From the sequence record OR352942.1: a DNA stretch of 64,000 nucleotides; one strand, written 5' to 3'. Position 1 is the stretch's first letter, and each line of letters begins with the position of its first letter. The DNA comes from Escherichia phage AV112. Below the pieces are notes generated by a model. It saw only the letters and a list, made by a program, of their open reading frames with translations. It had not been told where the DNA came from and did no database searches. Made by a program: the position numbers and the translations under genes. Of this stretch, positions 38,265 through 41,375 are shown piece by piece.

Positions 38265-38768
38265 TCATTTATTTTTAATTTTGCAAATTTTTTCTGCTTC
38301 AGCAATTGCAGCGTCAATGATGCTTTGTGCAATTTTATTACTAGTTGACCTGGCAATCACACTAAGAACAATTTCTTTTTCTTCACCACCCCAACCCCAA
38401 GTCCTTTGTTCGTGGGTACCTTTAACTACAGCTGAAACTTCAACAGAACGTCCACCATCAGAAGTTTTAACATCTACAACCCAATCACCATCTTTCTCTT
38501 CTACCCTTGATTTATCCCAAGAAATACTAATATATGATTCGTTGTCAATAGAAGTCGCCGGGTTTTTCTCTACCGTAAGACCTTCACTTTCCAGCCATTC
38601 AATAGTATTTGCGCATAAATCGGAGGAACACCTCATCGGGAACCGGCAAGATTTTTCACCTTTAGATGCGGCGTTATACATCTTTTCTAAAATACGCTTT
38701 TGCACGTTTTTAAAAATAGTTTCAGCAGATTCTTCAGATTTTTTATTCAGTTCAGTATAAAGACTCAT
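38265..38768 (-). CDS. hypothetical protein
   Basis: 167-aa ORF. Confidence 0.45.
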   Translation of the reverse strand: MSLYTELNKKSEESAETIFKNVQKRILEKMYNAASKGEKSCRFPMRCSSDLCANTIEWLESEGLTVEKNPATSIDNESYISISWDKSRVEEKDGDWVVDVKTSDGGRSVEVSAVVKGTHEQRTWGWGGEEKEIVLSVIARSTSNKIAQSIIDAAIAEAEKICKIKNK

Positions 38769-38857: not shown

Positions 38858-38885
38858 CAAAAAGCCCCAACCGTAAGGAAGGGGC
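38858..38885 (-). terminator. rho-independent terminator, copy 2 of the conserved GCCCC...GGGGC hairpin
   Basis: aaaaagcccc-aaccgtaaggaa-ggggc; U-run on the minus strand. Confidence 0.6.
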
Positions 38886-38891
38886 ATTCTA

Positions 38892-39356
38892 TTATTTAAT
38901 TTGTTTAGCAGACCAGATACGGTCTTTAATAAGTTTTTGGATATCTTCAACATACTCAAGGCTATGAGCGTGAGGATTATCTTTGAAGCTATGTGCTCGT
39001 GCCAGTTTCTGGCCTTCTGTTTTGATTACTAAAAGCTCTTTAAGAATTGCTTCATACTTAGAAATAATTCCTTTGGCGATATTTTTTTCTTGAGCGGCTT
39101 TAGGGTCCGCTTTTGGCGCAGGTGCTTTACCTGTAGCTTTCTGGAACAATTCACCTGATGCAGCTAGGCTTTTAAAAACTCGGCTAACAGTATTAGCATT
39201 AGTAAAACCTTCGGCTTTAAAATCTCTAATAAAACGGAAACGTTCTTCATCAGAGGCGTCTTTGTAAGAATATTTACCTGCTCTAATTGCTGCAATCGCA
39301 GCGGCTTTTACATCTGAACTAGATTGTTCAGTCAAAAATTCAGCGTATGATTTCAT
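38892..39356 (-). CDS. internal-protein-like protein with capsid-targeting-sequence-like N-terminus
   Basis: 154 aa; N-terminus MKSYAEFLTEQ, a diverged MKTYQEFIAE. Confidence 0.5.
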   Translation of the reverse strand: MKSYAEFLTEQSSSDVKAAAIAAIRAGKYSYKDASDEERFRFIRDFKAEGFTNANTVSRVFKSLAASGELFQKATGKAPAPKADPKAAQEKNIAKGIISKYEAILKELLVIKTEGQKLARAHSFKDNPHAHSLEYVEDIQKLIKDRIWSAKQIK

Positions 39357-39400
39357 GTTGCTTTTCCTAAGTTAATTAACTTATCTATTTATTATTATGC

Positions 39401-39428
39401 AAAAAAGCCCCAACCTTTCGGAAGGGGC
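39401..39428 (-). terminator. rho-independent terminator, copy 3 (GNRA-loop variant), downstream of the tRNA/stable-RNA unit
   Basis: aaaaaagcccc-aacctttcggaa-ggggc; on the minus strand a GAAA-loop hairpin then UUUUUU. Confidence 0.6.
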
Positions 39429-39479
39429 TATGCCTTGCGGCAACCTTGTCGGGGTTCCACCTGCTAAGGCAAGTGTTTG

Positions 39480-39740
39480 TACGAAACGCCGGGATTCGAA
39501 CCCGGTTATTAAGCAGTTGACGCTACTCAATATTTTTAAAAGGCCATATCTCGACCATATCCGAACGTTCCGTCAAAAACGCTACTCGGCTTACGGCAAA
39601 GATATTTCCTCGAATCGATAATTCTGTGCGCCGTTTCAGCTGTGATAGTAAAGAACCAGAACACAGTAAAACTGTGGGAGGAACTATACTCCAGGGAACA
39701 TCAGTCCGACGACTTACCGGTAGCGACCCGGTTTCTTGTT
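39480..39740 (-). ncRNA. probable stable small RNA(s) with tRNA-like 3' domain (T4 species 1/2-like)
   Basis: No ORF; minus strand contains a T-arm CCGGG-TTCGAAT-CCCGG followed by an acceptor-like strand CGTTTCG that could pair with CGGAACG about 85 nt upstream, but the D/anticodon region is not canonical. Confidence 0.35.
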
Positions 39741-39816
39741 TGGTCGAGACAGTAGGGGTCGAACCTACGACCTAGGACTTAGAAGGTCCTTGCTCTTCCT
39801 TCTGAGCTATGCCTCG
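39741..39816 (-). tRNA. tRNA-Arg (anticodon TCT), CCA encoded
   Basis: Manual fold: acceptor CGAGGCA/TGTCTCG, D-arm GCTC..GAGC, anticodon loop CTTCTAA, T-arm GTAGG-TTCGACC-CCTAC. Confidence 0.8.
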
Positions 39817-40665: not shown

Positions 40666-40959
40666 TTACCATTTATGATAATACATATTTACGATGCATT
40701 CAAGACCCAAAGGATTCTTGAAAATATCATATTCAAGAGGACCTTTTTCCGTTTCAATAAAGAAATCAAAGTTAACTGTGTTAAATTTACGGTCTTCCTT
40801 TACTAATTTAACTTGAGAAGATGAACGGTCAATGTAAACCTTTTCAACTTCAAAACATGTTAAAATGCCATAATCATCAATCAAGGCTTTAGCCGCATCT
40901 TGATCATATTTATATCCATTTTCAATGGATGATACTTTCGCATAAAGAATCATTATCAA
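40666..40959 (-). CDS. hypothetical protein
   Basis: 97-aa ORF upstream of the tRNA array. Confidence 0.45.
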   Translation of the reverse strand: MIMILYAKVSSIENGYKYDQDAAKALIDDYGILTCFEVEKVYIDRSSSQVKLVKEDRKFNTVNFDFFIETEKGPLEYDIFKNPLGLECIVNMYYHKW

Positions 40960-41375
40960 CCTTCATCAACAATAGTATGCGTATTGGCATTTACAATTTG
41001 CCACCAATCAAAGCGATTAGAACCATACATCAGTTTGTTTTCATTTTCTTTGATAATATCACGGAGTTCATCTTCAGTGGCGGCTTTCGCGATTAAATCA
41101 GCATATCCACCACGAGGATAATAATTATCACCTGCAAAAAGTAAAAAGTTTGGTTTAATGTTATTGAACTCTTCAAGAGTAATAACTTTTCCTGACGGTT
41201 GAACAATCTCTACATATTTATATCCCAATTTTTGAGCAGCATCTACTGCTTCAAGCAAAGTATCATGAGCCCATCCAATTTGACAACCTGGCTTTTCAGA
41301 TGGATTAGCCTGATAATCCGCATACACTTTGTACATTCTATTCACCTTTAGAAATTTTATCCATAACGATAGCAA
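40956..41375 (-). CDS. hypothetical protein
   Basis: 139-aa ORF. Confidence 0.45.
   Translation of the reverse strand: MLSLWIKFLKVNRMYKVYADYQANPSEKPGCQIGWAHDTLLEAVDAAQKLGYKYVEIVQPSGKVITLEEFNNIKPNFLLFAGDNYYPRGGYADLIAKAATEDELRDIIKENENKLMYGSNRFDWWQIVNANTHTIVDEG

Follow-up and report, generated by a model that had tools for sequence, protein, structure and literature searches.

Homologues of the T4 stable RNAs rnaD and rnaC close the tRNA operon of Escherichia phage AV112, and rnaC has a covariation-backed, cloverleaf-like fold

The tRNA operon of Escherichia phage AV112 ends in a stretch of about 300 nucleotides (nt) that matches no tRNA. We analyzed this stretch (positions 39430 to 39740) within a 64,000-nt piece of sequence record OR352942.1, hereafter the window, which belongs to a T4-like (Tequatrovirus) genome; all positions are counted from the first nucleotide of the window. 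A first-pass annotation, made from the sequence without database searches, had described the stretch as a single noncoding element lying 3' of tRNA-Arg, and had offered as one option that it is the counterpart of the species 1 and species 2 RNAs of T4. The placement is correct: on the minus strand, the stretch adjoins tRNA-Arg(UCU), the last member of an array running from 40568 to 39741 that ARAGORN and Rfam resolve into 10 tRNAs (Gln, Leu, Gly, Pro, Ser, Thr, Met, Tyr, Asn, and Arg). The T4 option was borne out as well, since the stretch is colinear with the misc_RNA features rnaD and rnaC of T4 (NC_000866), which are annotated directly 3' of the T4 tRNA-Arg. Rather than one element of about 300 nt, it is made up of two RNA genes, a spacer, and a trailer (Table 1).

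Table 1. Features at the 3' end of the AV112 tRNA operon
Feature	Position	Strand	Basis or remark
tRNA-Arg(UCU)	39741..39816	-	Last gene of the array, CCA encoded; ARAGORN; Rfam tRNA model, 64.9 bits
rnaD, T4 species 2 RNA homologue	39625..39739	-	115 nt (119 nt in T4); alignment to T4
Spacer GAAUUA between rnaD and rnaC	39619..39624	-	Alignment to T4, where it reads AAAUUA
rnaC, T4 species 1 RNA homologue	39480..39618	-	139 nt, cloverleaf-like; alignment to T4, covariance model R1
P3 apical loop UUGACG, rnaC nt 43-48	39571..39576	-	Candidate kissing partner
P4 apical loop CGUCAA, rnaC nt 97-102	39517..39522	-	Complement of the P3 loop
rnaC T-arm CCGGG/UUCGAAU/CCCGG	39489..39505	-	Read from the sequence
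3' trailer	39430..39479	-	Hairpin and invariant stretch; alignment to T4
Intrinsic terminator, hairpin and UUUUUU	39401..39429	-	Fold; conservation in T4

A query covering 39400 to 39760 matched 816 phage records, with at least 80% query coverage in 679, and was 100% identical to Escherichia phage AV113. The first-pass annotation had suggested alignment with the T4 RNA genes, RNA structure prediction, and covariance-model scans as ways forward, and the first of these gave a clear answer. AV112 rnaC is identical to that of T4 at 137 of 139 bases (98.6%) without a gap, rnaD is 76.6% identical to its T4 partner (L001, 2672 to 2554), and the trailer and terminator together are 91% identical. The tRNA-Arg gene, though it adjoins this nearly unchanged rnaC, shares only 60% identity with the T4 tRNA-Arg. 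As in T4, rnaD begins 2 nt past the CCA of tRNA-Arg. A covariance model built from 16 distinct rnaC sequences (R1) scored AV112 rnaC at 165.9 bits (E = 3.5e-41) and T4 rnaC at 166.3 bits. Judged from these comparisons, the two intervals are almost certainly the orthologues of T4 rnaD and rnaC. What we observed directly is this homology, the shared gene order, and the covarying secondary structure described below.

Neither RNA is new, as the stable RNAs of T4 have been known since the 1970s; our additions are a fold of rnaC backed by covariation, its range over about ten genera, its placement in tRNA arrays, and a candidate kissing contact. In T4, a primary transcript of ~1.75 kb is the precursor of eight tRNAs and of species I and II, and ends after the species I gene (the SegB paper, PMC2330249). 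In a 2022 transcriptome and proteome study, RNAC appeared on a northern blot, and both RNAs were assigned to the late class and described as "small regulatory RNAs" of unknown function (PMC9697503). By analogy with that T4 blot, rnaC would be expected to accumulate in AV112 as a discrete, stable RNA of ~140 nt. We found neither the rnaC fold nor the loop-loop contact in the literature that we searched, which did not reach the classic papers on species 1 RNA.

Structure prediction placed rnaC far from chance. Its minimum free energy (MFE) was -50.2 kcal/mol (z = -4.55), none of 200 shuffled sequences folded as well, and the MFE structure is the same as the RNAalifold consensus. With nt 1 set at window position 39618, the molecule is closed by an acceptor-like stem of 7 base pairs (bp), P1 (C2-G137, G3-C136, A4-U135, U5.U134, U6.U133, C7-G132, and G8-C131), which adjoins the T-stem directly (114-118 with 126-130) in a tRNA-like arrangement. 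Inside it lie P2 (A9-G11 with C76-U78), the long interrupted arm P3 (nt 14-73), a 10-nt linker (UUUAAAAAUA), the 10-bp arm P4 (nt 87-112), the single nucleotide A113, and the T-arm P5 (nt 114-130). The perfect T-arm noticed earlier, CCGGG-TTCGAAT-CCCGG, is present exactly as described on the minus strand and is the T-arm of rnaC, and the acceptor-like strand seen after it, CGTTTCGTA, proved to be the 3' strand of the terminal stem.

The fold is also supported by the way in which rnaC has changed. Among 35 distinct rnaC sequences, counted in an alignment fitted to the model, standard pairs occupy 96.7% of cells, and two-sided changes are found at 31 of the 51 pairs. No shuffle in 500 attained the observed covariation values, and when the 3' partners were slid by 1 to 3 columns as a control, pairing was only 36 to 48%. 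The P3 stems of divergent genera differ wholly in sequence and still pair, the acceptor pair 4-135 covaries from A-U to G-C (13 versus 22 sequences), and the middle stem pair of the T-arm changes from G-C to U-A in 15 sequences. Certain unpaired nucleotides, meanwhile, are invariant: the tandem U.U positions 5, 6, 133, and 134, then A12, U35, G75, A83, A84, and A86, and in the 3' part A113, U119 and C121 of the T-loop, and U138. The secondary structure is very probably as we describe it.

Several other features of the rnaC sequence were looked at alongside this fold. When ARAGORN calls a tRNA-Phe in the rnaC of phage KKP_3262, it chooses an inner acceptor stem (nt 46-53 with 131-138). Its G.U pair becomes A.C in 6 of 16 aligned sequences while the P1 pair 4-135 switches between A-U and G-C, and therefore the terminal stem is the real one. 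In AV112, the 8-bp pairing of nt 46-53 (ACGGAACG; 39566-39573) with nt 131-138 (39481-39488) rivals P1 plus upper P3; it exists in every Tequatrovirus-type copy, receives no support from covariation, and could be relevant in the unprocessed precursor. A K-turn at the 3-nt bulge of P3 was rejected, as inspection by eye found no tandem G.A pairs. The 9-mer GAGUAGCGU occurs twice in rnaC, once in the upper 5' strand of P3 (39579-39587, nt 32-40) and once in the 5' strand and loop start of P4 (39520-39528, nt 91-99), which may be the trace of an internal duplication. In copies of the Kanagawavirus ZX14 type, the T-loop holds the palindrome GCAUGC without the usual U54/A58, and the otherwise conserved G74 is C. 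Confined to this one clade, the change from G74/U120 to C74/G120 may reflect two positions that vary together in an elbow-like tertiary contact; alternatively, the palindromic loop may itself dimerize.

Known RNA families did not account for the stretch. At the gathering threshold of Rfam 15, only the 10 tRNAs pass in the window, and between 39300 and 39800 no family passes even with permissive filters; Rfam holds no family for rnaC or rnaD. Over 39430 to 39740 there was no ARAGORN call and no match to the tRNA model RF00005 even at E <= 10 (threshold, 29 bits), which agrees with the earlier remark that canonical D and anticodon arms are missing. Alignments to tRNA-Sec (16.6 bits, E = 1.6; threshold, 47), isrK, and tmRNA_permuted fell below threshold and were taken as chance. 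The covariance-model scans were empty where Rfam was concerned and successful with the purpose-built R1, which finds the rnaC family. What rnaC does have in common with a tRNA is a 7-bp acceptor stem contiguous with a 5-bp T-stem and a 7-nt T-loop, all of it supported by covariation.

R1 was used to sort pattern hits and BLAST leads, and it recognized 44 copies of rnaC, 35 of them distinct, with scores of 72 to 167 bits. These come from about ten genera of enterobacterial T4-like phages: Tequatrovirus, Mosigvirus, and other T4-like phages, Karamvirus (KKP_3262 and EnC15), Moonvirus (NM4.3 and KM16), Kanagawavirus (ZX14, PEi20, and Kosakonia phage 305), Kagamiyamavirus (EcS1), Gelderlandvirus (CF-SP2 and Proteus phage ABTNLPp2), Marfavirus (P545, Marfa, and EI), Erwinia phage COW86c, and Citrobacter phage Ursula. 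By BLAST, at least 758 phage records carry rnaC. Gapped patterns brought up ~120 extra loci in IMG/VR, which the covariance model assigned to chance, save for copies of the Tequatrovirus, Marfavirus, and Kanagawavirus types. The 12 loci found in metagenomes all belonged to known types. When each bacterial and archaeal species was represented by one genome, no cellular homologue of rnaC emerged at the stringency used, and BLAST searches extended from divergent rnaC members added no clade.

The position of rnaC in these genomes is informative. In Karamvirus, Gelderlandvirus, Kagamiyamavirus, and Erwinia phages, it sits within the tRNA array, mostly between tRNA-Trp and tRNA-Gly, with spacers of 4 to 11 nt that are the same as those between tRNAs, and neither rnaD nor a T4-type trailer accompanies it. 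Such a placement suggests that rnaC is excised as a unit by the tRNA-processing machinery, and that rnaD and the trailer are additions of T4, Mosigvirus, and Dhakavirus-type phages. As to its labeling in databases, the gene is called rnaC in only a handful of records. Misannotated copies include that of KKP_3262 (L003:2547-2642), a 96-nt tRNA-Phe(GAA) according to ARAGORN, and those of H41, H69, H153, and H155; the labels in use are tRNA-Met and tRNA-Lys as well as, very often, "hypothetical protein" on one or two coding sequences (CDSs).

The rnaD RNA, upstream of rnaC, combines three elements: the hairpin ACCGG-GUCGCUA-CCGGU on its 5' side, the long stem GUCGUCG/CGGCG(C)AC that closes the structure, and an apical domain that varies. 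Compared with T4, it is nearly unchanged over 48 nt at the 5' end and 25 nt at the 3' end, and its center is of another type. The same division holds in 14 rnaD variants. An invariant 5' part contains RCCGG-GUCGCUA-CCGGY, with a closing pair that covaries from A-U to G-C, and the 3' part is likewise invariant; between these ends, the central ~55 nt look like an exchanged cassette, with three or four versions that are unrelated in sequence. The consensus fold of the 14 variants shows compensatory changes at 9 of 33 pairs. The AV112 version carries the hairpin CACAG-UUUUA-CUGUG followed by a U-rich run (39676 to 39662), which looks like a terminator to a simple scanner. The GAAUUA spacer that follows rnaD is single stranded and A/U rich, and is presumably removed in processing.

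A recent study gives a hint that rnaD is biologically relevant. In 2025, an experimental-evolution study of a T4-like phage on E. coli ECOR34 reported one single-nucleotide polymorphism (SNP) that all three adapted populations shared. It lies in rnaD, and the coordinates in that paper place it ~41 nt from the rnaD 3' end, in the apical domain (PMC12685909). That paper (phage BW1, 164080-164336) puts rnaC "upstream" of rnaD and the SNP at "position 41 of the transcript." In the true minus-strand orientation, rnaD is the upstream gene, and the BW1 SNP lies ~73 nt from the rnaD 5' end, in the variable apical domain.

Downstream of rnaC, the trailer forms a hairpin (CACUUGC-CUUA-GCAGGUG, 39475 to 39458) and contains the invariant, single-stranded GGAACCCCGACAAGG. 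In an alignment of 10 variants, the hairpin has one compensatory change, from G-C to A-U in L173. The trailer is probably a 3'-processing region; an RNase III cut there, we presume from older literature, helps to form the 3' end of T4 species 1. The earlier claim of a conserved terminator was confirmed by a GC-rich hairpin followed by six U's that is kept in T4 with compensating changes. The AV112 terminator folds as AGCCCC-UUCC-GAAA-GGUU-GGGGCU plus UUUUUU, with six outer and two inner base pairs and a GAAA loop. In T4 the two U.U mismatches of AV112 are replaced, which gives a continuous 10-bp stem with the same loop, and in 10 variants the structure is conserved and compensated. A simple terminator scanner made no call at 39429 to 39401 because the outer stem encloses 12 nt, beyond its 8-nt loop limit. 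A second hairpin, GCCCCTTCC-TTAC-GGTTGGGGC with a T run, stands on the minus strand at 38858-38890, ~540 bp downstream and past an open reading frame (ORF) of 154 amino acids (38892..39356). Its sequence is nearly that of the rnaC terminator, and the two, on their sequences, look like a repeated terminator module. Whole-precursor folds also offered long-range pairing among rnaD, rnaC, and the trailer, which we rejected because the AV112 and T4 results disagree.

A candidate loop-loop contact in rnaC joins two of its arms. The apical loops of P3 (UUGACG, read 39576 to 39571) and P4 (CGUCAA, read 39522 to 39517) are perfectly complementary. Both are invariant in 28 of the 35 distinct sequences, across genera whose stems share almost no sequence; in the other seven, all from Marfavirus, the loops are UUGGCG and CGCCAA, so that where one loop has gone from A to G, its pairing partner in the other has gone from U to C. 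Consequently, all six loop pairs are standard in 35 of 35 sequences. Nearest-neighbor energies of the 6-mer duplexes are -5.5 kcal/mol for UUGACG/CGUCAA, -7.6 kcal/mol for the Marfavirus pair UUGGCG/CGCCAA, and -0.4 kcal/mol for the mixed pair UUGACG/CGCCAA. With three hairpin loops and about five placements, we estimate the chance of a perfect loop match at ~5/4096 (~0.001). A scan that fixed the P4 loop and the T-arm and left the P3 loop free brought no new rnaC member, and thus neither a counterexample to the complementarity nor new support for it. On these sequence patterns, the odds that the P3 and P4 loops kiss appear slightly better than even. P3 extends ~23 bp beyond P2 and P4 has 10 bp, so the P3 loop could reach P4 of the same molecule only if the long arm bent back on itself at its internal loops. 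Geometry would thus favor a symmetric homodimer, which closes without strain of this kind (P3 of molecule A with P4 of molecule B and the reverse), with an intramolecular contact as the alternative.

Taken together, the best explanation of the stretch is that it holds rnaD and rnaC, a trailer, and the tRNA-operon terminator, with tRNA mimicry on the part of rnaC, and we put the probability of this reading at roughly 85%. According to the T4 literature, the polycistronic tRNA precursor ends in rnaD and rnaC, which accumulate as stable RNAs. In our proposal, the P1/P5 minihelix of rnaC, a 7-bp acceptor on a 5-bp T-arm, would be a substrate for the tRNA-processing machinery, so rnaC would be cut out like a neighboring tRNA. 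Its 5' end would come from RNase P and its 3' end from tRNA-type trimming by endo- and exonucleases. What this leaves between tRNA-Arg and the RNase P site would be rnaD, stabilized by its own long hairpin, and the P3 and P4 loops of rnaC would pair, preferentially between two molecules. Excision of rnaC by the tRNA-processing machinery is likely. Its role after excision is a matter of speculation: during infection, rnaC might act on a tRNA-binding protein of host or phage as a tRNA decoy or sponge that is not aminoacylated, or it might serve such a protein as a scaffold, and we hold such a role to be rather doubtful.

A number of points count against the reading of rnaC as an excised tRNA mimic. 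The boundaries and processing sites of rnaD and rnaC are the T4 annotation carried over, and the transcript evidence comes from T4 only. Fitting the counting alignment to the model biases it toward the structure; the covariation effect far exceeds that bias. rnaC has no encoded CCA (its 3' end reads ...CGUA|CAAAC). In the Kanagawavirus ZX14 type (L004:2500-2639 and L019), the T-loop is UGCAUGC, which is noncanonical, and strict mimicry of the tRNA elbow is therefore not universal. The covariation of the loops is a single evolutionary event in one clade, which makes the loop contact suggestive and not proof. No binding partner of rnaC emerged from this analysis. Finally, T4 mutants with deletions of the tRNA region are viable on laboratory hosts, and any function would accordingly be conditional.

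A fuller version of tRNA mimicry takes rnaC to be a distinct, self-associating tRNA mimic that is excised like a tRNA, exists as a kissing homodimer or a closed monomer, travels as an array cassette in enterobacterial T4-like phages, and possibly serves as a decoy or sponge. The targets of such a decoy could be an anticodon nuclease, other tRNA-targeting defenses, or a processing enzyme. With all of its parts, this version is unlikely.

Also unlikely is the explanation that the whole stretch is a cis-acting 3' trailer, a structured RNA that shields the tRNA precursor against 3' exonucleases and steers its processing, with the stable RNAs as inert by-products. In both AV112 and T4 the stretch does lie at the 3' end of the operon, before the terminator; rnaD spans precisely what lies from one processing site to the next, with a center that has been swapped among the three or four unrelated versions; and the last 50 nt are conserved and form a hairpin, as expected of a processing signal. 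For rnaC, however, the case is different. At least six further genera or lineages have rnaC inside the array or on its own, without rnaD or the trailer, and there it keeps its fold and invariant loops. It has stayed 98.6% identical to the T4 gene while the adjoining tRNA-Arg has fallen to 60%, and its invariant loops on rewritten stems point to contacts in trans beyond bulk structure. The first-pass annotation had itself raised the prospect that the stretch was simply the 3' trailer of the tRNA precursor. This is reasonable for the last ~50 nt (39479 to 39430), and possibly for rnaD, and fails for rnaC with its array-internal copies, for which a cis-acting trailer is less supported than an excised tRNA mimic.

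Base pairing with mRNAs offers another way to give these RNAs a function: rnaC, rnaD, or both could be small regulatory RNAs acting on host or phage mRNAs through single-stranded parts, the UUUAAAAAU linker or the loops. A83, A84, and A86, conserved and unpaired in an A/U-rich linker, fit this idea, as do the regulatory label given to both RNAs (PMC9697503) and the convergent rnaD SNP in host adaptation. The two best-conserved loops, however, are complementary to each other and covary, a pattern better explained by pairing between them than by a common target elsewhere, and no mRNA target was found, though none was searched for. We consider this explanation distinctly improbable.

The possibility that rnaC is a decaying tRNA pseudogene, a functionless relic of a tRNA with a long arm, is very remote. 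It draws on the perfect T-arm and acceptor stem, on the "tRNA-Phe(GAA)" that ARAGORN calls in the Karamvirus copy, on the tRNA-Met, tRNA-Lys, and tRNA-Phe labels in GenBank, and on the weak tRNA-Sec-like alignment in Rfam. Yet neither ARAGORN nor Rfam finds a tRNA at the stretch, and the inner acceptor stem that ARAGORN needs acquires an A.C mismatch in 6 of 16 sequences, against a terminal stem whose pairs are kept and covary. A set of 31 compensated pairs with invariant loops over about 10 genera is unlike a pseudogene, and the divergence is the opposite of the neutral-rate pattern that a relic would show. The suggestion of a degenerate tRNA in the first-pass annotation is not supported, as selection strongly maintains in the body of rnaC a structure other than the tRNA fold.

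Coding for small proteins can be dismissed: ORFs of 37 to 74 amino acids do exist on both strands, and many GenBank records place CDS features here, but ORF positions, frames, and start codons vary among close relatives, substitutions fall as compensatory pairs in stems and not in a codon pattern, and the curated T4 record has misc_RNA only. The first-pass annotation was therefore mistaken in seeing no ORF, whatever its size, over the stretch, as a mechanical search lists 39397..39621 (+, 74 amino acids), 39381..39530 (-, 49), 39536..39664 (-, 42), and 39626..39775 (+, 49), and many records annotate a "hypothetical protein" over it. The conclusion that the stretch is noncoding nevertheless stands, because these ORFs are unconserved even among close relatives: the 74-amino-acid ORF, which starts with ATG, is absent from T4 and from the close relative L008, and the relative L033 has no ORF of at least 35 amino acids across the whole region.

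About 50 years after their discovery, the function of the T4 species 1 and 2 RNAs is still called unknown (PMC3014915, PMC9697503, and PMC12685909). rnaC is present in at least 750 phage genomes, where it is mostly unannotated, a "hypothetical protein," or a spurious tRNA. Since Rfam holds no rnaC family, a covariance model would correct many records. The comparative fold also yields sites that can be tested, namely the loop pair A46/U99, the tandem U.U of the acceptor stem, and the invariant G75 and C121. With this fold, range, placement, and candidate contact in hand, the question of what species 1 RNA does becomes more testable.

Among known systems, T4 itself is the closest. The order of tRNA-Arg, rnaD, a 6-nt spacer, rnaC, trailer, and terminator is the same in AV112, rnaC is 139 nt in both phages, the ends of rnaD are nearly identical, and the terminator is kept. 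The two differ in the central ~55 nt of rnaD, which in AV112 are another sequence type, and in the array, which in T4 comprises eight tRNAs with segB between Ile and Arg and in AV112 comprises 10 tRNAs without segB; AV112 tRNA-Met, tRNA-Tyr, and tRNA-Asn stand where T4 has Ile-segB. They also differ 3' of the terminator, where T4 has e.8 and AV112 carries a different gene. The flanking minus-strand genes of AV112 (38892-39356, 38265-38768, 40666-40959, and 40956-41375) belong to PHROG families of unknown function (phrog_2280, 6869, 2023, and 1411).

Kissing complexes in which loops of 6 to 7 nt are fully paired include HIV-1 TAR/TAR*, ColE1 RNA I/RNA II, and the HIV-1 DIS dimer. rnaC likewise presents two complementary, covarying 6-nt loops on stable stems. 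In rnaC both loops belong to one 139-nt molecule, which would make the contact either intramolecular or homodimeric. The likeness is one of mechanism, not of family membership, the rnaC contact being predicted from sequence comparison.

Other RNAs mimic tRNAs without decoding. In the 3' tRNA-like structures of plant viruses, in mascRNA, and in the tRNA-like domain of tmRNA, an acceptor/T minihelix recruits processing enzymes such as RNase P. rnaC would have the same kind of minihelix and would likewise not decode. It has no sequence or model similarity to these RNAs (tmRNA_permuted, 10 bits, E = 8), and its other arms differ. Set against tRNA itself (RF00005), rnaC has an arm of ~60 nt at the position of the D-arm, a 10-bp arm with a 6-nt loop at that of the anticodon arm, a 10-nt linker in place of nucleotide 26, and the tandem U.U in its acceptor stem. 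It shares with tRNA the 7-bp acceptor on a 5-bp T-stem, the UUCGAAU T-loop, the four-way junction, and the spacing within the array, and its invariant G75 and C121 parallel G19 and C56 of tRNA.

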